From: Candidatus Obscuribacteraceae bacterium
GTDB taxonomy: Bacteria; Cyanobacteriota; Vampirovibrionia; Obscuribacterales; Obscuribacteraceae
Assembly: GCA_044229845.1 (NCBI GenBank)
Contig: JBGASG010000005.1
Location: 349,078 to 413,077, forward strand
Direction: 5' to 3'
Length of the DNA stretch: 64,000 bases
Within the stretch, counting starts at the first letter, position 1, and the number at the start of each line of letters is the position of its first letter. A program made the position numbers and the translations under genes. The notes beneath the pieces are model-generated. The model worked only from the letters and a program-made list of their open reading frames with translations, was not told the DNA's origin and searched no databases. Positions 4,714 to 18,201 of the stretch are shown here, piece after piece.

Positions 4714-6102
4714 ATGTATTTGACAGACAGGCTGATTAGCACCCAAGAAGGAAGTGCATCGCGCAATTTCTTCATTTCGGCTGTTTTCTGGTCGCTGATT
4801 GGCATGGGCGCCGGATTGTTTGCCGCATTGGAATTCTCATTCCCAGACCTCGTGCACAACGTACCGCAGCTCTCGATGCCACACCTGCGGATGCTGCACG
4901 TCAATGCTGTCGCCATCGGCTGGCTGTCGATGGCTTATATCGGTTCGATGTTCTACATGATTCCGTCTCTGACCAAAACCAAACTGTGGAGCGAGCGTCT
5001 GGGCAACATGACCATGTGGGCCTGGAATTTGCTCATGATCGGCGCATTTTGCACCCTGCTCAATGGTTACACGGAAGGTCGCGAGTATGCCGAGCTTGGA
5101 GCAGTTCTGGATACAGTGGCAGTGATCGGACTGATCTGTGTCGCTCTCAACTGCTACATGACCGTGATCAACCGCCGTGTCAAAAAGCTCTATGTCAGTC
5201 TCTGGTACTTCTTGGGCGCGCTCTTCTGGTTCCCGCTCGTCTACATCATTGGACAGCGCACCTTCGTGCAATTGAATGGCTTGAACGATGCCATCATCGG
5301 TTGGTTCTACGGACACAACATTCTTGGTATGTGGTTCACCACTGTCGGTGTCGGCATGATGTATTACCTCTTGCCACGTTTGACCAACAACCCGCTTTAC
5401 AGCCACGGTCTCTCTATGCTGGGCTTCTGGGGCATCGCCCTTTTCTATGCACCAACCGGCACGCACCACATCACCCAGTCGCCCGTCCCGGAGTGGCTGA
5501 AAGCAATCGCTATCATCTCGTCCATATTTCTCCTCGTTCCTGTTTTCACTGTCCTTACTAACTTCTTCATGACTATGAAGGGCAAGTGGCAGCTGATGGT
5601 GTCTGACATGACGCTGAGGTTCACCATCACATCAGCGATTTTCTATTACATTACTTGCGTGCAGGGACCTTTCCAGGCAACACGCTGGGTCAACTGGTAT
5701 CTGCACTTCACTCAGTGGGTTGTAGGACATGCTCACTTGGCGTTGCTGGGGACGTTCTCGTTTATCAGTGTGGCGGCCATCTACTACGGGTTGCCACGTC
5801 TGACCGGAAGACCCTGGTACAGCCAGGGTCTGATTCGTGCCCACTACTGGCTGAAGACATTGGGGTTCGGAGCGATGATGACCGTACTGACAATTGCCGG
5901 ACTCATCCAGTCGGCTGGTTGGCAGATGGGCATTCCGGTTGACCAATGGGGACTGCAGATTCGCCCTTACTGGTGGCTGAGATCCATAAGCGGCATCATG
6001 ATCTTCACTGGACAGTGCCTCTTTGCCTACAACATCTACCGCACACTCTACACACCGACCGCCGTCGCGTCGGTGAAGAAAGGTCAGGAGGTTAAGGCGT
6101 AA
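4714..6102 (+). CDS. ccoN: C-family (cbb3-type) haem-copper oxygen reductase subunit I
   Basis: RMLHVNAV (haem b His), GREYAE, WFYGHN (CuB His), FYAPTGTHH (helix VII Tyr and two CuB His), HFTQWVVGHAH; about 12 TM. Confidence 0.92.
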   Translation: MYLTDRLISTQEGSASRNFFISAVFWSLIGMGAGLFAALEFSFPDLVHNVPQLSMPHLRMLHVNAVAIGWLSMAYIGSMFYMIPSLTKTKLWSERLGNMTMWAWNLLMIGAFCTLLNGYTEGREYAELGAVLDTVAVIGLICVALNCYMTVINRRVKKLYVSLWYFLGALFWFPLVYIIGQRTFVQLNGLNDAIIGWFYGHNILGMWFTTVGVGMMYYLLPRLTNNPLYSHGLSMLGFWGIALFYAPTGTHHITQSPVPEWLKAIAIISSIFLLVPVFTVLTNFFMTMKGKWQLMVSDMTLRFTITSAIFYYITCVQGPFQATRWVNWYLHFTQWVVGHAHLALLGTFSFISVAAIYYGLPRLTGRPWYSQGLIRAHYWLKTLGFGAMMTVLTIAGLIQSAGWQMGIPVDQWGLQIRPYWWLRSISGIMIFTGQCLFAYNIYRTLYTPTAVASVKKGQEVKA

Positions 6103-7040
6103 TGAACGGCTATCGCCTGGGCGCATCAGGAATCATCATTACTTTCTTCACTATTATCACCGCCACCGTGCTACTGCCGATGGTGCTGTTCAATCCGAAG
6201 CCTTCCGGTCATGGCAACGACTATACTTCGGCAGCGGTGACCAAAGTTGCCGATCCGGTACGCGGACGGCAGATCTATGTGAGAGAAGGCTGCGTTTATT
6301 GCCACACTCAGTTCACACGCTTACAGGATCGTGGCTACGGACCGTTGGTGAAGGCCGGGGACTTCACCCAGGAAACTCCACACCAGCTTGGCACCGCACG
6401 GACCGGTCCGGATCTAACGAATGAGGGCGGAAGATTTCCATCCGAGTGGCAAAAAGCCCACCTGATTCAACCTCGGGCCGTGAAGCCTGGATCTATTATG
6501 CCGAGCTTCAGCTATTTGTCGGACCGAGATATGAATGACTTGGTGGCATATATTCAGACTCTTGGGAACATGCGGGTAGTCAATCACTTCGTGGAGGCGC
6601 CGGAGGAATACAAGGCATACCTGGCAAAGAAAACAGTTGATACTAATGCCGATGCCTCAGCTAACGCCGGTCGTGGCATCTACACGCAGAACTGCGCTGC
6701 CTGTCACGGACTGGAAGGATACGGCAACGGTCCCAACGCCATCTCGCTCGAGAAGAAGCCAGCCAACTTTACCCGTCCTTTTTATAAGCAGTATCCGGAT
6801 GACTTCTGGTTCTACCGCATAAGTGAAGGTGTAGCAGGCACACGTATGCCGCGTTTCGGTGAAGTGCTCTCCCCTGAGCAGCGCTGGTATCTGGTTGCAT
6901 ACCTCAAGACTCTGCCTCGCGATCAGGAAGTGGTGATTGACAAGCTTGATCAACTCAACCCGGTCGATGCAGTCAAGCTGCCGAAACTCTCCAAGCAATT
7001 GTGGGAACCAGCTTCCGGCGGAGACGAGGAGGGTCACTAA
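6102..7040 (+). CDS. ccoO: cbb3 subunit II (CcoO) fused to a second cytochrome c domain
   Basis: N-terminal TM, GRQIYVREGCVYCH, RTGPDL, SIMPSF; second haem site CAACH with RMP ligand; TAATG coupling to ccoN. Confidence 0.88.
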   Translation: MNGYRLGASGIIITFFTIITATVLLPMVLFNPKPSGHGNDYTSAAVTKVADPVRGRQIYVREGCVYCHTQFTRLQDRGYGPLVKAGDFTQETPHQLGTARTGPDLTNEGGRFPSEWQKAHLIQPRAVKPGSIMPSFSYLSDRDMNDLVAYIQTLGNMRVVNHFVEAPEEYKAYLAKKTVDTNADASANAGRGIYTQNCAACHGLEGYGNGPNAISLEKKPANFTRPFYKQYPDDFWFYRISEGVAGTRMPRFGEVLSPEQRWYLVAYLKTLPRDQEVVIDKLDQLNPVDAVKLPKLSKQLWEPASGGDEEGH

Positions 7041-7394
7041 ATGTGTCCAAATTGCATTCTTAACCAGGTTGGTCTTCAGTCGGGCATCTATGTTGCCTTC
7101 TTCGTTTGCGGGGTTTTCTTCTTAGCCGCCATGGGCGCCATGTGGTTTGCTTTCAAGAATGGTGATTTTGAAGACATGGAGGGTTCGAAATTCGACATGC
7201 TCGATGATGTTGAAGATGGAACGGAAGCAGCCCACGCCCGCGCGCGTTTCGAACGCGCCCGCCGCGAAAGAGCCGATGCGCGCGCTGAGTTCGGCGGAAA
7301 TGGTAGCGATGACATCAGTCACGCATCGACGGCATCATCAGCATCAGAATCATCAAGTTCAGACCGGGAGGAAGTAGAAAGTGCCAGACGATAA
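7041..7394 (+). CDS. CcoS/FixS-like oxidase maturation protein with N-terminal CxxC
   Basis: Single TM followed by W.FKNGDFEDME, resembling the CcoS GQFDD motif; position within the operon. Confidence 0.6.
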   Translation: MCPNCILNQVGLQSGIYVAFFVCGVFFLAAMGAMWFAFKNGDFEDMEGSKFDMLDDVEDGTEAAHARARFERARRERADARAEFGGNGSDDISHASTASSASESSSSDREEVESARR

Positions 7395-7623
7395 CGAATC
7401 GCTAGCCAAAGGTTCCGGATCGGCCGCAGGCGAAGTGGCCAAGAGCACCAAAGCCGCTGCCACCACAGCCGGTGCCTCCACTGAACCGGCCGAGGAAGGC
7501 CACTACGAAGTGGTCGCCGAATATCGCATCGGCGAAGGGCCACCGCCGATTGCATTGGTCGTTATGTTCGCCCTGATCGTCTTGTGGGCATCCGTCTCAT
7601 GGGTGCCATTCTTCGGTTATTAG
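7381..7623 (+). CDS. Small single-TM protein of the respiratory operon
   Basis: 80 aa with a C-terminal TM; overlaps the upstream gene in the same orientation. Confidence 0.6.
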   Translation: MPDDNESLAKGSGSAAGEVAKSTKAAATTAGASTEPAEEGHYEVVAEYRIGEGPPPIALVVMFALIVLWASVSWVPFFGY

Positions 7624-7668
7624 GCTCCGTATTTATACTAGTTAGAGCGCTGAAAGTATCCAACCAAA

Positions 7669-8706
7669 ATGAAACTCAAGAAGACCCTAGCTCCGATGAC
7701 TATCCTGCCGGCAATAGCGGCATCGTTTCTCGCAGGCTGCGGCGGCGATAACGGCGTAGTGACGCTGAAGGGCGATCAAGCCGCTCAGTTTGGCGACACC
7801 AAATTGACCCAGGCTCCGGTCGGTACCGTCCTCTATCCGGATGACAGACCGTCGGAAGACGACGGCAAAGCGCTCTACCAGGCGCAAAACTGCGCTTCCT
7901 GTCACGGCGCCGACGGCAGCTCGATAGCGCCCGGTGCCAAGGCAGCCCTGTCCGACCCTCTCTGGGCCGGCAAGAAACGCCCCGTCGAGGAGTTCATCTT
8001 CCTTACTTATGGCGACAAAAATATCAAAGGCCACGAGAAACCGCTGCGCGACACTCTCAGCCGCCGCGAAATCTGGAACCTGGTTGCTTACAGCCGCGCT
8101 CTGGCGGCGCCGCTTCTGACCAAAGAAGAGATGGATGCAGTACTGCCGGTCTTCGGTGCCAACTGCGCAGTCTGCCACGGCACCAAAGGCGATGGCGACG
8201 GACCGCTTATGCGTAACCTCGAGCCCGCCCCGGCTAACTTCCAGGTCTTCGCCCGCTTCTACGACCGCGATGACGATACGCTCTACGACCACATCGCCAA
8301 CGGCATTCGCTGGGAAGGCATGCCTAACTTCCTCGGCAAGAAAGATCCTCGCAACAAAGTAGAATTCGATCAAAAATATATTCGTAAGCTGGTTGCTTAC
8401 GTCCGCGCTTTCCACTTCAGCACTGCGCCGACACTAACGGCAAATTCCAAGCCCAGCACTGTGGGCGGCACTGATTCTTTACCGCCGACTCCGCCTACAG
8501 GCTCTGACCTCGGGCACAAAGACCAGACACAACCTGAACAAAGCAAAACTCCGGCCAGCGCAGGACAGCATGAAGTCCCCAGCTCTCCAGCCGAGTCAGC
8601 ATCTCCGAGTTCGGGATCGGCCACGGGTACTGAACCTATTAATTCACCGTCGTCTCCGTCGAGCAACGCAACGCCCGCCGGCGGAACGACAAATCCACAG
8701 CATTGA
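7669..8706 (+). CDS. Dihaem cytochrome c lipoprotein (CcoP/c1 functional analogue)
   Basis: Lipobox LAGC, CASCH and CAVCH, GMP ligand motif, Ser/Pro/Thr-rich tail. Confidence 0.85.
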   Translation: MKLKKTLAPMTILPAIAASFLAGCGGDNGVVTLKGDQAAQFGDTKLTQAPVGTVLYPDDRPSEDDGKALYQAQNCASCHGADGSSIAPGAKAALSDPLWAGKKRPVEEFIFLTYGDKNIKGHEKPLRDTLSRREIWNLVAYSRALAAPLLTKEEMDAVLPVFGANCAVCHGTKGDGDGPLMRNLEPAPANFQVFARFYDRDDDTLYDHIANGIRWEGMPNFLGKKDPRNKVEFDQKYIRKLVAYVRAFHFSTAPTLTANSKPSTVGGTDSLPPTPPTGSDLGHKDQTQPEQSKTPASAGQHEVPSSPAESASPSSGSATGTEPINSPSSPSSNATPAGGTTNPQH

Positions 8707-8716
8707 GGACAGGACA

Positions 8717-9283
8717 ATGGCAGAGGGAACATCTAGAAGATTACTTTTGAAGACGCTGGCGGCGGTGCCCCTGGCGCTCACGTTCGGTCTGGTGGCGTCA
8801 CCGATGGTGCGCTTCTTGCTGCCGACCCGCAAACCGCTCGACCTGCTGGGACCATCGGATCAGCCGTCGGCTATGAAGGACGTTTCCTTCAATCAGAGTG
8901 ACTTCGCCGAACCGTGGACCTGCCTGCCGTTCACCTTCGAGCAGAAATACTTAGAATACAATCCGGAAGGCATGGAAGTCCGCAAAGTGCCGGGCTTCGC
9001 AGTCAAACTGCCCTCCGGCGAAGTGGTCGCGTACAGCCGCATTTGCCCGCACCTGGGCTGCATCTTCAACTTCGTCAAAGATCCGGAAGAGTGTGCCAAA
9101 GGCTACAACTTCAAACCGAACGGACCGGTATTTGCCTGTCCGTGTCACTTGAGCGTGTATGACATCGCTCAAGCCGGCAAGGTCGTCAGTGGACCGGCTC
9201 CGCGTCCGCCACGCCAGTTTACGACCAAGACCGAAGGCGACAAGATCTCTATCGTTTCATTGGAGGCTGGGGGCATTGCCTGA
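8717..9283 (+). CDS. Rieske [2Fe-2S] subunit of a bc-type complex
   Basis: Tat motif SRRLLLK and TM; CPHLGC and CPCHLSVY boxes; GPAPRP. Start at ATG 8717 after AGGAC. Confidence 0.93.
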   Translation: MAEGTSRRLLLKTLAAVPLALTFGLVASPMVRFLLPTRKPLDLLGPSDQPSAMKDVSFNQSDFAEPWTCLPFTFEQKYLEYNPEGMEVRKVPGFAVKLPSGEVVAYSRICPHLGCIFNFVKDPEECAKGYNFKPNGPVFACPCHLSVYDIAQAGKVVSGPAPRPPRQFTTKTEGDKISIVSLEAGGIA

Positions 9284-11090
9284 TACATCAACCACTGCAA
9301 ATTCCTTTGGCAGCCGCCTATCGGGAGCACTGGTCAAGACCAATGACTGGTTGAAGACTCGCTTCAACGGTATTGATCTCTTCGATGAGCACTATGGGCT
9401 GGAAGCCAAAACGAACCCCTTCTATTCGTTGGGCTCGATTTTCTACCTGGTCTGGTTCATAGTCATGTTCACGGGACTCGTATTGATCATGTGGTACGTG
9501 CCGACGAAAGCTCAGGCCTTCGACTCGATTCTCCATATTCAGCACGGCATTCCGCTGGGCAACTTGATGCGCGGATGCCACAAGTACGGCGCGGACGCCA
9601 TGATCATCGCCGCCACCATGCGGCTTTTCCGCATGTTTCTTGCCGCCGACTACAAACCCGGCAAAGAGTTCAACATCGCTATTGCGCTTGTCACGCTCTT
9701 GCTCTCGATGTATTCCGGTCTGACCGGATATCTGCTCATCTGGAACCAGCGTGCATTTTGGGCGACCAAGGTGTTTGCCACCTTCCCGACTTATATGGAT
9801 CAGTTCCCGGTGATGGGCGACTTCTACATGCCGCTGGTCAAATCCGTGCACATGGGCTGGAATACAGCCGAGTTTCTGCTCGGAGCCGGCGGCGCCATCA
9901 CGCAGGAGACGATTACGCGTTTCTTCTCATTGCACCTGGCGTTCTCTCTGATACCACTGATTTTCGTCGAACTGTATTTCTACAAGACAGGCTTCAAGCG
10001 CGTTCCGCTCAACTGGATCAAGCGCTCGGTGATCATCCTCATGCTGATCATCGTTTCGATCATCATGCCGGCTGCGCTCGGACACCGCTCCAACCCGGAC
10101 GTAACGCCGCTGCCGATTTTGTCCGACTGGTACTTCCTCGGCTTGTATCAGATGTACAAATATCTGGAGCCGGTGGTGGCAACCGAAATCACGATGGTGA
10201 TTCCGCTCACCGTCGTCCTCCTTCCTTTCATCGATGTCTGGGTGACCGGACCGGAAAAAGATATCTGGAAGCGCCCGCTGATCTTTATGACCAGCATCAT
10301 GGGCTTCGTCTGCTGGATCGTCTTCTCGATTTTGATCATCGTCAACATCGCCAACATCCACAACGATCCGCCCTACTGGCGCTCGTTCCTCTGGTGCCTG
10401 CCTAACATCGGCATGCTCTGGCAACTGGTTGTTTACTTCGGTGAAAAGAACCCGGTTCTCAAAGCCAAGTTTGCGGTCGGCGCCATGGCGATGGCGATTG
10501 TCGCCGGCATTCAGACCATACTCGCCGTGTTCTACTACTACATGGCTCTCACGGAGATGTTCTTCTCACCGATCACTCAGTCGCTCACTTACTGGATGCT
10601 CCGTCCTTTCGTACCGGATGCCTCCCAGCTCGAGCAAGCAATGAAGACGGTGCAGCCTCTGTCGACCTACACCGCCTCGACCTACACCGCAACCTGGCAA
10701 GCCACTGTGCTGTCCAACTTCGTGGAGAAGGGCGGACCCGCGCAGAAAGCTGCTTACGACACAGTTTTGCAACTGTGCCAGAAAACATCGCCGCTCGATT
10801 TCATCTTCAAGGCGATTCCCACCTTCGATCCTAACCACCCTGTCTATGCCAGCATGACCGACTTCCTGGTCACCAACCGCTATGCATACGACTATGTGGT
10901 CTTCTGCGGGCGCATGAACGGCGATGTGAAACCGTACCCGCTTTATGTTCCGGAAGTTGACTGGTTCTGGATGGTGGGCGGTTTCGTGACCATGGTCGCC
11001 TGCTTGATCGTCTGGAACAAACTGCGCAATCTGCCGAAGACGGCTCCGGCAGCTCAAACGCAGACCGCACCGGCCACCAACCCGTCATAG
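9276..11090 (+). CDS. Cytochrome b paralogue 1 (b6 + subunit IV-like fusion with C-terminal extension)
   Basis: NPFYSLG, RGCHKYGA, TGYLLIWNQRAFWA, TRFFSLH, SDWYFL (PEWY-like). TTG start at 9276, 9 nt after GGAGG. Confidence 0.9.
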   Translation: MPDTSTTANSFGSRLSGALVKTNDWLKTRFNGIDLFDEHYGLEAKTNPFYSLGSIFYLVWFIVMFTGLVLIMWYVPTKAQAFDSILHIQHGIPLGNLMRGCHKYGADAMIIAATMRLFRMFLAADYKPGKEFNIAIALVTLLLSMYSGLTGYLLIWNQRAFWATKVFATFPTYMDQFPVMGDFYMPLVKSVHMGWNTAEFLLGAGGAITQETITRFFSLHLAFSLIPLIFVELYFYKTGFKRVPLNWIKRSVIILMLIIVSIIMPAALGHRSNPDVTPLPILSDWYFLGLYQMYKYLEPVVATEITMVIPLTVVLLPFIDVWVTGPEKDIWKRPLIFMTSIMGFVCWIVFSILIIVNIANIHNDPPYWRSFLWCLPNIGMLWQLVVYFGEKNPVLKAKFAVGAMAMAIVAGIQTILAVFYYYMALTEMFFSPITQSLTYWMLRPFVPDASQLEQAMKTVQPLSTYTASTYTATWQATVLSNFVEKGGPAQKAAYDTVLQLCQKTSPLDFIFKAIPTFDPNHPVYASMTDFLVTNRYAYDYVVFCGRMNGDVKPYPLYVPEVDWFWMVGGFVTMVACLIVWNKLRNLPKTAPAAQTQTAPATNPS

Positions 11091-11098
11091 GAGAGCCC

Positions 11099-11410
11099 AT
11101 GAAAAAGCACTGGTCTCTACGCTACTCGATGTTCATTTTCTCGGTCATCTCGCTTTCATGGTTTTTTGCGGGATGGCGGGGTATTAACGAACACGGTGCC
11201 GTTGCTGACTGGGCACTGCTTGTCGGTGCAACGCTTTTGACGGGCGGGCTCCTGGCTGTGCAGGGTTACTGGATCTATATAGAGGAACTGGCAAAGGGCA
11301 GTTTGAAACGGCGCATCGGAATTTTCGATCGCATCCACGCCAAGATGTCAGCTGGTACTGCGGCCGGTGCCTTGCAGGGCGCCACCACCCACAAGAAAGG
11401 GGAACTATAA
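11099..11410 (+). CDS. Small two-TM protein of the respiratory operon
   Basis: GGAG RBS, two hydrophobic segments, tight operon packing. Confidence 0.65.
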   Translation: MKKHWSLRYSMFIFSVISLSWFFAGWRGINEHGAVADWALLVGATLLTGGLLAVQGYWIYIEELAKGSLKRRIGIFDRIHAKMSAGTAAGALQGATTHKKGEL

Positions 11411-11797
11411 ATGGACCTCAACTCAAAGCCAGTCACCATGACCACCATCATAGTCTGCCTTGCTTTCGTCGGGCTGACATTCGTTGGTGCTTTGATGCTG
11501 CCGTCTTCCGAGTTGCTCGGGTGGGAAGTGATCACCCACAAACCCCAAGCCGGCGACTCACCGGTTTTGACATTCGAGCCAGCCAAGCACATAGCCACAG
11601 CCCTGACGAATCTGGGCGATGACGCCTGCAAAGCCATCTGGCACAAAGACTTCAAAACTCTGGCAGCAGAGGATCCCAACGTCCAATACTACGCATACTC
11701 TCTCTTCCTCGCGGCGGCACTATTAGCCGCGGGGGTGGCTTTCGCCGTTGTCGGACGGCTGGAGTCCGAAGAGCGTACTCTCATTCCAACCAAGTAA
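11411..11797 (+). CDS. Small two-TM protein of the respiratory operon
   Basis: Abuts the previous stop codon; N- and C-terminal TM segments. Confidence 0.65.
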   Translation: MDLNSKPVTMTTIIVCLAFVGLTFVGALMLPSSELLGWEVITHKPQAGDSPVLTFEPAKHIATALTNLGDDACKAIWHKDFKTLAAEDPNVQYYAYSLFLAAALLAAGVAFAVVGRLESEERTLIPTK

Positions 11798-11825
11798 GAA
11801 CTGAAGGCAAGGGAAATCAATCCAA

Positions 11826-12995
11826 ATGGCGTTATACACCGAACCCTTAAACCGAGCTAGCCAGCGTGTTGAACACTGGATCAATGCTGTGTCGACCAGC
11901 AAGTACAACCCCTTCTATTATCACGGCGCACTGCCGCAGTTTTTCCTGTGGGTGCTCTTCCTCTCGGGTCTGTTGCTGTTTGCCTATTACATCCCGACCA
12001 TCGATAACGCTTATTCATCGCCGCGGTTGATCAACGCCTACACCTCGGTCGAATACATCACCAAGACAATTCCTTTTGGTGTCGTGGTGCGCGCCATGCA
12101 CCGTTATGCAGGCGACGCGATGGTAATCACGATCATCCTGCACGCGTTGCGCGTGTGGTTCACCGATCGTTATCGTCAGTACCGCATTATTCAATGGCTC
12201 TCCGGTATCGTGCTGTTCCTTTTGGTGCTGGTCATCGGTCAGACCGGTTATTACCTGGTCTGGGATGAGCGCTCCTTGCTGCTCACCCGCATGACGGTAA
12301 CCGCGTTCGATTCATTGCCCATTATCGGCGAACCGCTCAAACTGTGGTTCCTCAACGGCAAAGACATCACCAACTTGACGCTGGCCAACTTCCTGTTCAT
12401 CCACATTGGTCTGTCATTCTCACTCTTGTTCGGCCTCTGGATTCACTACGTGCGCATGCAGCGCCCGGTGGTGACGCCACCGCCCGCGATGAACTACATT
12501 CTGATGGCTTTGATCATCGTGGCTGTATTCGCGTTTCCGATCACGACCGGCGGCCGAATGGAATTTCCGGCAGCCGACCTGACGAAACCGGCAACGCAAC
12601 TGTCCATCGACTGGTTCTTCCTCTTCCCGTACTGGATGATGCTGCACATGCCGATGGCGGCATTCTGGGGTGTGACCATTGTTGTCACCGCCCTCCTGTG
12701 CTACATCCCCTATCTCGTGAAGACTCCTCCCGTTCAAGCGGCGGAAGTGGTCGACACCAAGTGCACCGGCTGCTCGCTGTGCGCCAAAGACTGCCCGTAC
12801 GCCGCCATCGAAATGGTGCCCGCACCAGCCGGCAGCCGTTTCAAACTGCTGGCGACGATCATGCCCTATCGCTGCTCGGGCTGCGGAGTCTGTGTCGGTG
12901 CCTGCGCCTTCGACGCGGTCGACCTGCCCAACCTTCTCGATACTGATGTGACCACGAAGATCAAAGAGCTTGCCTCTTCCGGATCAACTACATAG
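11826..12995 (+). CDS. Cytochrome b paralogue 2 fused to a 2[4Fe-4S] ferredoxin domain
   Basis: Four haem His (RAMH-13x-H, FIH-13x-H), IDWFFL; C-terminal CTGCSLCAKDCP and CSGCGVCVGACA. Confidence 0.9.
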   Translation: MALYTEPLNRASQRVEHWINAVSTSKYNPFYYHGALPQFFLWVLFLSGLLLFAYYIPTIDNAYSSPRLINAYTSVEYITKTIPFGVVVRAMHRYAGDAMVITIILHALRVWFTDRYRQYRIIQWLSGIVLFLLVLVIGQTGYYLVWDERSLLLTRMTVTAFDSLPIIGEPLKLWFLNGKDITNLTLANFLFIHIGLSFSLLFGLWIHYVRMQRPVVTPPPAMNYILMALIIVAVFAFPITTGGRMEFPAADLTKPATQLSIDWFFLFPYWMMLHMPMAAFWGVTIVVTALLCYIPYLVKTPPVQAAEVVDTKCTGCSLCAKDCPYAAIEMVPAPAGSRFKLLATIMPYRCSGCGVCVGACAFDAVDLPNLLDTDVTTKIKELASSGSTT

Positions 12996-13014
12996 ATAAG
13001 GGAAACGAAACCAC

Positions 13015-13452
13015 ATGGCTGGCAAAGTTATCACTCTCATTTGTGAACGCTCGTGCGAACTGACCGCAGAGCACCTCAACGGCAACGAACTGAAAGGCGT
13101 GCCGGGAGTCAACGTGGTCAAGTATCCGTGCTCCGGCATGATTCAACCGCTGATGATCGAAGCGGCACTGAAAGCCGGCGCCGACGGTGTCGTAGTCACC
13201 GGTTGCGAGATCGGCGATTGCTACTACCGCGAAGGCAATCGCATGATTCGCGAGCGCTTGCTCGGCGACCGTCCGCCGACGTTGAAAAAGGGAACGGACC
13301 GTCGTCGCGTCATGGGTCTCTGGCTCTCCCGCGTTCAAACAGACCGCCTGATCAACGAAGTGAAGGAATTCCGCGCCAGCCTAGATAAGCTGCCGCCGCC
13401 CACACCAGAGGCAAAGAAACCTGCTGCTGCGCCCCCGAAAGCACAATCGTGA
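13015..13452 (+). CDS. MvhD/FlpD-like [2Fe-2S] protein (hydrogenase delta subunit family)
   Basis: ICERSC, YPCSGMI, GADGVVVTGCEIGDCYYREGN match the MvhD pattern. Confidence 0.85.
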   Translation: MAGKVITLICERSCELTAEHLNGNELKGVPGVNVVKYPCSGMIQPLMIEAALKAGADGVVVTGCEIGDCYYREGNRMIRERLLGDRPPTLKKGTDRRRVMGLWLSRVQTDRLINEVKEFRASLDKLPPPTPEAKKPAAAPPKAQS

Positions 13453-16277: not shown

Positions 16278-18020
16278 TCATGCACTTGCCGGATGGCAAG
16301 TTTTGTCCGTGGTTGGTTCCAGGACGAGCACGCGGTGCGGTACGCGTTGCAGTTCCTGGAACAAGACACTGATGCGATCGTAATCTGCAATCGTTTTTCC
16401 GACCCAGACCGCCTGACGCATCCAGCCTTCAGTTTCGTGTCCATACGGGGCTTCGTCTCCGTGTGGACACGAGATGCTGTTGTTGTTTCTTTCCGTAGTC
16501 TGCAACTCCCGCTGCGACGCCGGTTTTGGCGCGAGCATTCCATCGTTGACGACAATTAGCTTGTCGCCGTCTTCTGCTTGCACATAAATGAGGCAATTGA
16601 GAAGGCGCGTCAATCGGCGCGAGCGCAAATAGTTTTGCGCCACCCGAGAAAGTAGACGAGCGATTTTCCAGGAAACCTCCTCCGCATCGACTTCTTTTTC
16701 GATAGCCACTCGCTCAGGTTTGATGATCACAGAGGTCTGAGTGCGCAGAGACTCGATGTGCAACTGTCCGTACGAACGCTCGATGAACTGCTCAGTTTCA
16801 AGCTGCACGTTTCCACGTTGAGAGGCGCGCAGCAGGCGAGCACCCATCGCAATCGTGAAGCGCGGGTCAGCAAATTGTTCGCGGGTCACCGACCAGCGTC
16901 GGCAAAAAACATCGACACCCGCCTCTAAAAGATGCGGATCGAGCGACTCCATAAAAATGCGAGCATCGAAGTCTCCGGTCGAAGCGCACCGACACAGTCG
17001 CAGCAGTCTGTCGAGCGACCAGGCGCTGGTGAATGGTCCGAGTGTGTGCGTTGCATCCGGACGCTCTGATTTGCTGCCGAAGTCACGCGAGCAAAAGAAT
17101 ATCTGTCGCCCTGTTTCCTTCAATGCCGCATTGTAGGGAGGATTGTGCAGCTTAATCAGATCAGACTCCATCACGGCGGCTTCAATCACGGTGTCGCAGG
17201 TGGTGACATCAATGTCACTGACCTGCGTGAGCATTTCCAGAAGTTCCGGATCGCGTTTCTTCTGACCTCGAAAATAGCTGTTGACGCGGCTCTTCAATGA
17301 TGTGGCTTTGCCGACGTAGAGTATGTCGCCATGGCGATCCAGCATGCGGTACACACCCGGCTTGTTCGGCAGCCCAAGGCGCTTATCGCGACTGATGGGA
17401 TATTCGTACTTGCCGCGTTTGCTTTTGAATGGCTGCGTCAGGAAGCGCACCAATTCTTCATCTGTTGTGATGTTGTTTTCGGCCAGAACCTCGACCAGAT
17501 ACTTCCAGATGATCCAGGTGGCATGCACATGAGAAGATGCCCGCTTCAGCGGTGGCAACCGCTTACCGAAAAATCCTGCGATGGCGCGAATGCCGCGCGC
17601 CGGAAAGTTCGGGTAAATGCGCCGCGCGATCTCGTGAGTGCAGTAAACCGAGAAATTGATCGGTGCGTTGTCGCGATAATTCACCAGTGGATCAAACATG
17701 AGACTGCGCAGAAACGGCATCTCGAATTTCGCATAGTGAATAACGCTGTATGGCGTAGCTGTCAGCGCTTGCCGCAGTGCGCGCGACACGTCTCGCTGAG
17801 AAACCGCTTCGTCAAGATCGTCGACCGTAATGCCGGTGAGTTCGGCAATTCTGTCCGGGATGAGATTATATGGCTGTTTAACGATGCAATATGTGATCTC
17901 CGGCAACTCGGTGCGCGCTGAGGCGCGGGCAAATGCTAGTTCCAATAGTCCGCCGGTCGTCGGGCTGGAACCCGTCGTCTGGCAGTCAACAAAAATCACT
18001 TCTCGATCAGCTAAATTCAT
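16278..18020 (-). CDS. DEDDh-exonuclease-like domain fused to UvrC/Cho-type GIY-YIG nuclease
   Basis: FVDCQTTG...LTGIT in the N-terminal part; LPNKPGVY..ILYVGKA..LKSRVNSYF..E..LIK.HNPPYN. Start at MNLADR after GGGGAG. Confidence 0.85.
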   Translation of the reverse strand: MNLADREVIFVDCQTTGSSPTTGGLLELAFARASARTELPEITYCIVKQPYNLIPDRIAELTGITVDDLDEAVSQRDVSRALRQALTATPYSVIHYAKFEMPFLRSLMFDPLVNYRDNAPINFSVYCTHEIARRIYPNFPARGIRAIAGFFGKRLPPLKRASSHVHATWIIWKYLVEVLAENNITTDEELVRFLTQPFKSKRGKYEYPISRDKRLGLPNKPGVYRMLDRHGDILYVGKATSLKSRVNSYFRGQKKRDPELLEMLTQVSDIDVTTCDTVIEAAVMESDLIKLHNPPYNAALKETGRQIFFCSRDFGSKSERPDATHTLGPFTSAWSLDRLLRLCRCASTGDFDARIFMESLDPHLLEAGVDVFCRRWSVTREQFADPRFTIAMGARLLRASQRGNVQLETEQFIERSYGQLHIESLRTQTSVIIKPERVAIEKEVDAEEVSWKIARLLSRVAQNYLRSRRLTRLLNCLIYVQAEDGDKLIVVNDGMLAPKPASQRELQTTERNNNSISCPHGDEAPYGHETEGWMRQAVWVGKTIADYDRISVLFQELQRVPHRVLVLEPTTDKTCHPASA

Positions 18021-18201
18021 AAAGCTCCCCCAGCTGGTTATACACCAGTTGAGCGGCCGTGCCAATGTATAATCTGAACCGGTTAGGCGACGCATCGAAA
18101 TACGTTGGCGATGTAGTCGAAGATATTCTACGCAATACAACCGAAATCACTGAGTTGCAGGCCGGGTGAGAAACGATTTGCGTGACGCCGAGCGCTGCGG
18201 T

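Follow-up and report, generated by a model that had tools for sequence, protein, structure and literature searches.

A conserved Rieske/cytochrome b cassette with two complementary cytochromes b in Obscuribacteraceae: a candidate asymmetric complex III

Introduction

The canonical cytochrome bc1 and b6f complexes (PDB 6xi0_C, 8asi_F, and 6rqf_I) are homodimers with two quinol oxidation (Qo) sites, two quinone reduction (Qi) sites, and four b haems. Here, we analyze a 64,000-nucleotide stretch of contig JBGASG010000005.1 from a Candidatus Obscuribacteraceae bacterium of the class Vampirovibrionia (hereafter the window) that departs from this pattern by encoding a Rieske protein together with two different cytochromes b: CytB1, which is without the ligands of the high-potential haem bH, and CytB2, which has a relaxed Qo site. 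Both resemble the canonical proteins in fold (Foldseek template modeling (TM) scores of 0.64 for CytB1 and 0.59 for CytB2) and in the ligands of the low-potential haem bL, and the likeness extends to the Rieske partner, the cd1 and ef elements of CytB1, and the predicted helix A/D dimer interface. Judged by its sequences, the cassette is a real, strongly conserved variant of the Rieske/cytochrome b complex that occurs in several phyla. A heterodimer of CytB1 and CytB2 is the best-supported frame for it, and a cytoplasmic iron-sulfur (Fe-S) arm was the missing piece.

The same operon is known as the Melainabacterial (Vampirovibrionia) complex III-IV operon, in which a C-family oxygen reductase adjoins a Rieske gene and two cytochrome bc genes (PMC6349859; bioRxiv 10.1101/531145; also mentioned in PMC8235220), and here, too, a C-family oxygen reductase gene and a Rieske gene cluster with two cytochrome b genes. 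The available text of the two main accounts annotates the proteins as b6f or bc and is silent on the loss of bH, the relaxed Qo site, the ferredoxin fusion, and MvhD. Unlike the operon as described there, the core cassette studied here extends beyond the class, and a cbb3 oxidase may or may not accompany it. Our literature search, which did not reach Soo et al. 2017/2019, Dibrova et al. 2013, and ten Brink et al. 2013, returned no account of bH-ligand loss or of a natural heterodimer.

A matching pattern of cofactor loss has been engineered in Rhodobacter bc1, where H212N in one half of the dimer combined with G158W in the other requires bL-bL crossing and supports growth, while symmetric mutants do not (PMC4152375, available part). 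Unlike the cassette, that complex is artificial, has near-identical subunits and an intact Qi site, and carries no Fe-S arm.

CytB2 has described relatives in subfamily H (PMC5600118 section 8) or the PDWF-FeS clade (PMC4122944 section 14), which in these sections are characterized by four histidines, no PEWY motif, and a 4Fe-4S domain plus MvhD, and we found all of these with CytB2. Members from Magnetospirillum and Turneriella carry 4Fe-4S and MvhD modules in fused form, and both sources give their function as unknown. By eye, CytB2 resembles the named subfamily H rows amb2225, Turpa_2107, and HTH_0156, which lie outside our tree (see below). Unlike in subfamily H, MvhD is a separate gene here, and a bH-less cytochrome b and a Rieske protein always accompany CytB2. 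The Fe-S module itself is arranged like the C-terminal ferredoxin domain of HdrA and MvhD (NF040770; PDB 5odc_A), i.e., 2x[4Fe-4S] and then a four-cysteine MvhD protein, but is without a flavin domain and is attached to a membrane cytochrome b. Histidine-deficient cytochromes b are on record as well (cyanobacterial subfamily K, Pyrobaculum, and one Planctopirus leaf with H Q H Q and PEWY; PMC5600118 Fig. S1). These have lost one or both bH ligands, and the available text of that paper describes no complementary partner for them. The Arg/SDWY family to which CytB1 belongs is absent from the leaves in parts 1 and 2 of the 3 parts of the Fig. S1 text, and surveys that remove sequences short of any of the four histidines (PMC4122944, available text) would have excluded CytB1 by design.

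Results

The core cassette comprises the following features (coordinates in the window):

7669..8706, + strand: dihaem cytochrome c, probable lipoprotein; two CxxCH motifs (PF13442/PF00034); always upstream of the Rieske gene and the likely acceptor of electrons from the Rieske protein.
8717..9283, + strand: Rieske [2Fe-2S] protein with a twin-arginine N-terminus and a Ser/Tyr(Phe) signature (PF00355).
9276..11090, + strand: CytB1, with bL ligands and Qo site and without bH ligands; a core of eight helices followed by a C-terminal extension that varies.
9621..9623, + strand: Arg116, at the helix-B bH histidine position of CytB1.
9975..9977, + strand: Tyr234, at the helix-D bH histidine position of CytB1.
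10104..10139, + strand: SDWY-type ef-loop motif at the Qo site of CytB1; none of its 12 residues varies (61/61).
11099..11410, + strand: small membrane protein encoded between CytB1 and CytB2 that may serve as a small subunit; no family match, with a homologue in loci of the class and outside it.
11411..11797, + strand: second small membrane protein, two helices, candidate small subunit; no family match.
11826..12995, + strand: CytB2, with six helices, four haem histidines, and a relaxed Qo site, without canonical Qi residues.
12738..12935, + strand: C-terminal 2x[4Fe-4S] ferredoxin domain of CytB2, HdrA C-terminus-like (Fer4 families; NF040770 571-642).
13015..13452, + strand: MvhD/FlpD [2Fe-2S] protein, soluble (PF02662 E 4e-23); the sole FlpD match in the genome.

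The open reading frame (ORF) of CytB1 is intact, encodes 604 amino acids, and begins with a TTG codon that overlaps the stop of the Rieske gene. Its haem ligand positions hold His102 (RGCH), Arg116 (ATMR), His220 (FSLH), and Tyr234 (VELY), and its Qo motifs are WNQRAFWA at residue 156 and TPLPILSDWYFL at residue 277. The register is secure because Arg116 aligns to the second helix-B histidine of b6 in the PDB (HMMER alignments) and because 5 of 149 rows of a profile search have histidine in the Tyr234 column, still without the helix-B histidine. Alignments with Azospirillum PetB, cyanobacterial PetB, and Brevibacillus QcrB gave the same register.

These features are strongly conserved. Our class survey covered 200 other genomes and examined 60 of 118 CytB1 loci, chosen to span families, and a metagenome set consisted of the best 80 of 552 relatives, with some duplicates and a few possible Melainabacteria; since the genomes are kin and the sets overlap, no count given here is of independent lineages. 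Among 61 CytB1 sequences of the class, position 116 is Arg in 47 and Lys in 14, position 234 is always Tyr, and both bL histidines are kept in 61/61. The metagenome loci have Arg (79) or Lys (1) at position 116 and most commonly Phe (41), Tyr (12), Arg (12), Leu (8), or His (4) at position 234, with SDWY and Glu232 both present in 80/80. In further homologues, position 116 is Arg in 120/120 and again in 120/120, and position 234 is Phe in 102, Leu in 16, and Val in 2 of 120. Three residues, Glu232 and the bH-pocket Gly53 and Arg119, show no variation, and an AlphaFold model of CytB1 has eight core helices. We conclude that these alignments show bH binding through the usual ligands to be impossible in CytB1, with bL and a strongly selected Qo site kept. 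Local decay or a frameshift as the source of the histidine loss is ruled out by the intact ORFs and by conservation across phyla.

The C-terminal extension of CytB1 (window 10440-11090) would form two extra helices around a 140-residue loop and contains no CxxCH. CytB1-type proteins are about 600 amino acids long in this family and 440-540 in others, and the extension is missing from some loci outside the class. More distant bH-less cytochromes b (P0144, P0146, P0150, P0151, P0233, and P0238) have PDWY or ADWY motifs.

CytB2 is likewise encoded by an intact ORF (389 amino acids) and has His92, His106, His193, and His207 at 14-residue spacing together with WDERSLLL and IDWF in its Qo region. 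Across 59 class sequences, each of the four histidines is kept in 59/59, while the cd1 helix and the ef loop vary; the cysteines of its ferredoxin domain are kept in 58-59/59 and the four cysteines of MvhD in 59/59. The AlphaFold model of CytB2 has six helices followed by the ferredoxin domain, which canonical topology would place in the cytoplasm. In alignments to b6, PetB, and QcrB, the haem-ci cysteine is absent from both CytB1 and CytB2, as are the residues that serve bc1 at Qi (His, Lys, and Asp), and the D-E linker of both is much shorter than that of bc1, by about 20 residues in CytB2. The proteins are therefore not of the b6f type: there is no haem-ci cysteine (CxGG), the chains are long and fused instead of split into b6 and subunit IV, and the histidine spacing is 14 rather than 15 residues. 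Near a pocket on the negative (N) side of the membrane, paired CytB2s keep Tyr31, Tyr32, Asn/Gln38, and Tyr208, where 120 stand-alone relatives, including alphaproteobacterial fusions, instead have Ala, Gln/Asn, Trp, and Ile. These residues may form a quinone site or merely a surface that binds CytB1.

Two other residues of CytB2 were considered and rejected. His33 as a general extra cofactor ligand fails because it is conserved in 59/59 class sequences but is Thr in 53/68 and Thr/Leu in 56/68 outside loci, and Arg213 as a fixed partner of Glu232 is not conserved outside the class.

The complementarity of the two subunits was quantified with 46 gene pairs below 85% identity, drawn from 120 full pairs, and with 21 Qo positions mapped through Azospirillum PetB, using the residues that we take to line the Qo, bH, and Qi sites. 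Mean top-residue frequency at the Qo positions is 0.95 in CytB1 versus 0.57 in CytB2 (backgrounds 0.64 and 0.59), and at bL positions it is 1.00 in both. At the docking position, where mutation of the glycine to Trp blocks Qo in Rhodobacter, CytB1 has Ala (46/46) and CytB2 has Leu (38), Ile (7), or Val (1), while the Trp and Gly of the bH pocket are kept in 46/46 CytB2 sequences and variable in CytB1. The p-side pocket of CytB2 is partly kept (Tyr142, Trp146, Asp147, and Asp262 in 45-46/46). These comparisons show CytB2 to keep bL and bH sites and two [4Fe-4S] clusters on the predicted cytoplasmic side, without the Rieske-docking features of Qo.

An earlier reading of the window, made from the sequence alone, had anticipated much of this: it reported the first histidines of helices B and D in the first protein with Arg and Tyr 14 residues on, its kept Qo site, four histidines at 14-residue spacing in the second, and the lack of the haem-ci cysteine in both, all of which we found as described. 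It had further called for orthologue alignments as a check, and these did not retain the bH histidines (Arg/Lys at position 116 in 61/61 and 80/80). Its description of the second Qo region as degenerate is right for the background-level variation and the Leu at the docking glycine, but not for Tyr142, Trp146, Asp147, and Asp262.

For complex prediction, we supplied CytB1 (residues 21-388), three haems, and CytB2 (residues 3-384), each protein with a 59-row alignment, as a heterodimer only. The model scored 0.73, with 0.00 for the best of three controls, and passed a mark that is reached by 116/157 solved complexes and 2/215 mismatched pairs. Runs shared at least 94% of contacts, with a partner predicted local distance difference test score (pLDDT) of at least 75. 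The predicted contacts are symmetric, from helix A of each protein to helix D of the other beside the bL ligands, with cytoplasmic-side contacts between residues 232-239 of CytB1 and 208-217 of CytB2. We consider it probable that CytB1 and CytB2 pair into a heterodimer with one Qo site and three b haems and that electrons cross from bL to bL'. The asymmetric heterodimer proposed by the sequence-only reading is favored by complementary conserved losses, by co-occurrence (see below), and by a passing model, and the engineered Rhodobacter bc1 (PMC4152375) makes it plausible on separate grounds. Even so, the pairing is an inference, and Alphaproteobacteria have CytB2-like proteins with no CytB1.

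The genes of the cassette are tightly linked. Gene order is kept in 58/60 class loci, and in the other 2 the string stops after the small ORFs, of which at least 2 hydrophobic ones lie between the cytochrome b genes in 106/126 loci. Among the 200 genomes of the class, 116 have both cytochromes, 80 neither, 2 CytB1 only, and 2 CytB2 only (cut-offs E 1e-40 for CytB1 and E 1e-30 for CytB2); in the four discordant genomes the matches lie near contig ends of assemblies that are 76-87% complete. Where the operon is split (G086 and G173), CytB2 and MvhD are retained on another contig. In 80 named loci, CytB2 follows CytB1 in 74/74 and MvhD follows in 70/70 with enough flank, and metagenome loci with at least 1 kb downstream gave 65/65 and 56/56, respectively. 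The Rieske gene lies upstream of CytB1 in 67/67 metagenome loci, and the class Rieske proteins keep CPH..C and CPCH in 61/61, Ser146 in 61/61, and Tyr (46) or Phe (15) at position 148.

Neighbors are less constant: upstream, metagenome loci have cbb3 genes in some cases and ccm genes in many; downstream, many have a polyprenyl synthetase gene and others a divergent COX1-family gene with FixO-like cytochromes. Because neighbors differ between loci, cbb3 is not integral to the cassette, and the stable unit is cytochrome c, Rieske protein, CytB1, small ORFs, CytB2, and MvhD. A role of CytB2 and MvhD in cbb3 maturation is weakened by the fact that both follow CytB1 where no oxidase gene lies nearby. 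The divergent COX1-family gene (PF00115 E 4e-25) stands directly downstream of MvhD in L178, L179, L180, L183, L192, L195, L196, L224, and L234, accompanied by a FixO-like and a further cytochrome c gene; its product has few histidines and may be an inactive oxidase. In 16/80 loci (including L177, L181, L188, L206, and L221), genes for a cupredoxin and an NAD(P)H-binding short-chain dehydrogenase/reductase (SDR) lie downstream of the cassette and might encode a carrier or partner.

When representatives at 50% identity were searched with a profile to look beyond the class, the bH-less type ranked first, followed by ordinary four-histidine cytochromes (110/149 rows). Some matches are labeled as Armatimonadota or Holophagaceae, and the protein of locus L205 has an identical counterpart labeled Bacillati bacterium ANGP1. 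In a sample of the phylum, 3/251 genomes matched at E 1e-28, all within the class, and a search of genome contigs for related loci returned close relatives only. Searches of plasmids gave one CytB2-like fusion and, among the matches listed, no CytB1 orthologue.

A tree of the four-helix domain (66 rows, unrooted, with 22 rows dropped for speed or long branches) places CytB1 on one side of a branch with a Shimodaira-Hasegawa-like approximate likelihood ratio test (SH-aLRT) value of 97, groups CytB2 with alphaproteobacterial cytochrome b-ferredoxin-MvhD fusions (SH-aLRT 100), and has 25 canonical sequences as a third, unstarred group (SH-aLRT 84). CytB1 and CytB2 score only about 80 bits against each other, which rules out a recent duplication as their source. 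An ancient common origin is allowed, though not shown, by these sequences, and the word paralogues used for them earlier is apt for such an ancient relation (joint grouping at SH-aLRT 84) but not for a close one.

The CytB2-type fusion family has 3211 matches, and nesting of the stand-alone fusions inside the paired CytB2s has p 0.615 in the approximately unbiased (AU) test. On plasmid NZ_CP156080.1 (L171:5759-12505), a stand-alone cytochrome b-ferredoxin-MvhD fusion adjoins genes for a haem-copper oxidase, cyoE, SCO, and hemerythrin, with no Rieske gene within 10 kb in this single context examined. The oxidase is annotated as cbb3 subunit I and may be eNOR-like.

Discussion

At a probability of roughly 0.4, we favor the reading that the cassette encodes an asymmetric complex III with quinone re-reduction on the N side and the Fe-S arm as store or donor of electrons. 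More probable than this reading as a whole is its first part, in which CytB1 and CytB2 would join via the ordinary helix A/D dimer interface and quinol, probably menaquinol, would be oxidized at CytB1 only, with the first electron passing through the Rieske protein and the dihaem cytochrome c to cbb3 and O2, and the second from bL of CytB1 to bL and then bH of CytB2. In CytB2, quinone would then be re-reduced at a putative, non-canonical N-side site that the invariant Glu232 of CytB1 may complete across the dimer interface. The ferredoxin/MvhD arm would assume the role that haem ci has in b6f by storing the first electron or by supplying the second from cytoplasmic ferredoxin, and a stabilized semiquinone would therefore not be needed. 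We propose this role because CytB2 is without the Qi His/Asp and haem ci and because the arm lies on the predicted N side. The arm as donor is also favored by the N-side Tyr31, Tyr32, Asn/Gln38, and Tyr208 of paired CytB2s and by a genome with a NuoD match, no NuoF match, and futalosine-pathway genes. Electrons run downhill from ferredoxin to bH; the reverse direction is uphill and works against the membrane potential. The scheme would amount to the Q cycle as Mitchell first conceived it, with the second donor hard-wired. Both a ferredoxin-fed haem cn that stores electrons and the separate donor "d" of Mitchell's initial proposal have been described (PMC5600118 section 10). The sequence-only reading had let the electron exit via bH of the second subunit in a rewired Q cycle; beyond bH, this route is not supported as written, since CytB2 lacks the Qi His, Asp/Lys, and haem-ci cysteine and the ferredoxin domain and MvhD had been left out of it. 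We tentatively propose that this is a naturally and obligately asymmetric complex III, present in several phyla, that combines a single Qo site and three b haems with compulsory bL-bL' crossing and in which the Fe-S arm delivers the second electron from the cytoplasm.

The main rival keeps the same heterodimer but exports the electron from bH of CytB2 through 2x[4Fe-4S] and MvhD to a cytoplasmic acceptor, as a bifurcating quinone enzyme without Qi. The lack of canonical Qi residues in CytB2, the conservation of ferredoxin domain and MvhD in every locus with flank, and the match of this pair to the HdrA C-terminus/MvhD module all fit such a route; in that module, electrons run from ferredoxin through MvhD to flavin. 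We nonetheless think it unlikely, since reduction of a ferredoxin-level acceptor by bH would be uphill and against the membrane potential (menaquinone, -60 mV; PMC7908018) and no flavoprotein or HdrA gene recurs in cassette loci. Placed below it, and doubtful in our view, is the absence of any functional heterodimer: CytB1 and the Rieske protein would form a bL-only, non-Q-cycling homodimeric quinol oxidase, and CytB2, its ferredoxin domain, and MvhD a separate wire or quinone:ferredoxin oxidoreductase that is merely co-transcribed. The strongest point for this explanation is that stand-alone fusions keep the four histidines, Asp-Trp, and eight cysteines in 120/120, and the plasmid fusion beside an oxidase but no Rieske gene and the great sequence distance between CytB1 and CytB2 point the same way. 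Yet CytB1 is never without CytB2 where flank suffices (65/65 and 74/74), CytB2 is kept in split operons, a homodimer with bL alone leaves the second electron no way out, and the heterodimer model passes its mark; moreover, symmetric H212N is non-functional in Rhodobacter (PMC4152375).

It appears improbable that the heterodimer simply runs a modified Q cycle, the strict form of the sequence-only reading, in which CytB2 would have a normal Qi site and the Fe-S arm would be an accessory or regulatory element. The engineered equivalent functions without an extra arm (PMC4152375) and the bH-pocket residues of CytB2 are all kept, but the Qi His and Asp/Lys are absent, the D-E linker is shortened, and the cysteines of the Fe-S arm are conserved as strongly as the haem ligands. 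Least probable is that CytB1 binds a second haem through non-histidine ligands (Tyr234 and Glu232) or that its changes are local decay. The invariance of Gly53, Arg119, and Glu232 and the helix-D histidine kept in 4/80 outside loci speak for bound haem, whereas position 234 is mostly Phe or Leu outside the class, position 116 is always Arg or Lys, the Trp and Gly of the bH pocket are relaxed in CytB1, and conservation across phyla excludes decay.

Several observations weigh against the asymmetric complex III with an Fe-S donor arm that we favor. The ferredoxin domain of CytB2 is modeled at low confidence (pLDDT 42-62), and the model therefore gives no distance from this domain to bH; the cassette encodes no partner for MvhD; and the N-side quinone site of CytB2 is putative, with His33 no general cofactor ligand given the Thr found outside the class. 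Asp262 is kept in 45/46 CytB2 sequences, and a separate p-side quinone site in CytB2 is therefore possible. CytB2-type proteins with an Fe-S arm exist without an adjacent CytB1 or Rieske gene (in one context), and CytB2 therefore need not have CytB1 to be useful. The heterodimer score may reflect memory of solved bc1/b6f homodimers and hence likeness rather than binding; its inputs differed from those of the calibration in that the alignments were ours and a ligand rode along, and a score for the heterodimer alone cannot rank heterodimers against homodimers. Profile searches of the genome found a NuoD match, a single FlpD, and futalosine-pathway genes, but no NuoF match and no MenD over the cut-off; the NuoF blank, one of the points for the arm as donor, comes from an assembly that is 88% complete. 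The quinone type is left unsettled by the futalosine genes on the one hand and the Rieske signature on the other, as a Ser-Tyr/Phe signature denotes the mid-high potential type (PMC4122944 section 21).

If the favored reading is true, electron crossing between subunits, so far shown in engineered mutants only, would be compulsory in nature, and the role of this crossing and of the dimer, which has been probed by engineered fusions, would become directly testable in a natural case. A complex with the Fe-S arm as donor would realize in nature the Q cycle that Mitchell first proposed, in which center N is served by a separate donor, and would in net terms be a ferredoxin:cytochrome c oxidoreductase; it would also give the uncharacterized cytochrome b-ferredoxin-MvhD family a function. 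The complex III of this aerobic sister lineage of Cyanobacteria is not b6f (no haem ci, not split), which runs counter to the annotation used to argue for b6f in the common ancestor (PMC6349859, available text).

Other features of the locus and genome

The cassette ends a string of eleven genes on the + strand (window 4714-13452, ccoN through MvhD/FlpD) with a G+C content of 0.554, compared with 0.555 for the genome, and the nearest named relatives of the locus mostly carry the labels Obscuribacterales or Melainabacteria. The remaining genes of the string are:

4714..6102, + strand: ccoN, C-family (cbb3) oxygen reductase subunit I (PF00115 E 2e-83; TIGR00780 E 6e-84, under the equivalog cut-off).
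6102..7040, + strand: CcoO fused to a second c-type haem domain (PF02433 and PF00034).
7041..7394, + strand: FixS/CcoS-like maturation protein (PF03597).
7381..7623, + strand: small membrane protein with one hydrophobic segment; no family match, kept in class loci with cbb3-linked operons.

Assembled RNA contigs (four runs, two studies) match parts of the string from ccoN through mvhD, both cytochrome b genes among them, and leave the first and last bins of the stretch uncovered. They are compatible with transcription and give no information on strand, level, or a single transcript.

Two further cytochromes b are encoded in the genome, near nitrate reductase and bd-like genes; both have four histidines and PEWY, and each has a Rieske gene of its own. 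At G000:C20 ~96300-101000 (L172:8333-16000), a canonical PEWY cytochrome b adjoins a NarI-Rieske fusion, narJ, narH, narG, and a nitrate/nitrite transporter. At G000:C20 ~109300-118800 (L173:1308-10843), the second canonical cytochrome b and Rieske pair is flanked, by eye, by two CydA-like genes, one with a c-haem motif, with a qNOR-like gene, two reverse-transcriptase-like ORFs, and transposase pieces nearby; the strand of this locus is + in the ORF list and - in the genome search. Within the window, an ORF on the - strand (16278-18140) resembles, by eye, an exonuclease domain fused to a GIY-YIG/UvrC-like domain.

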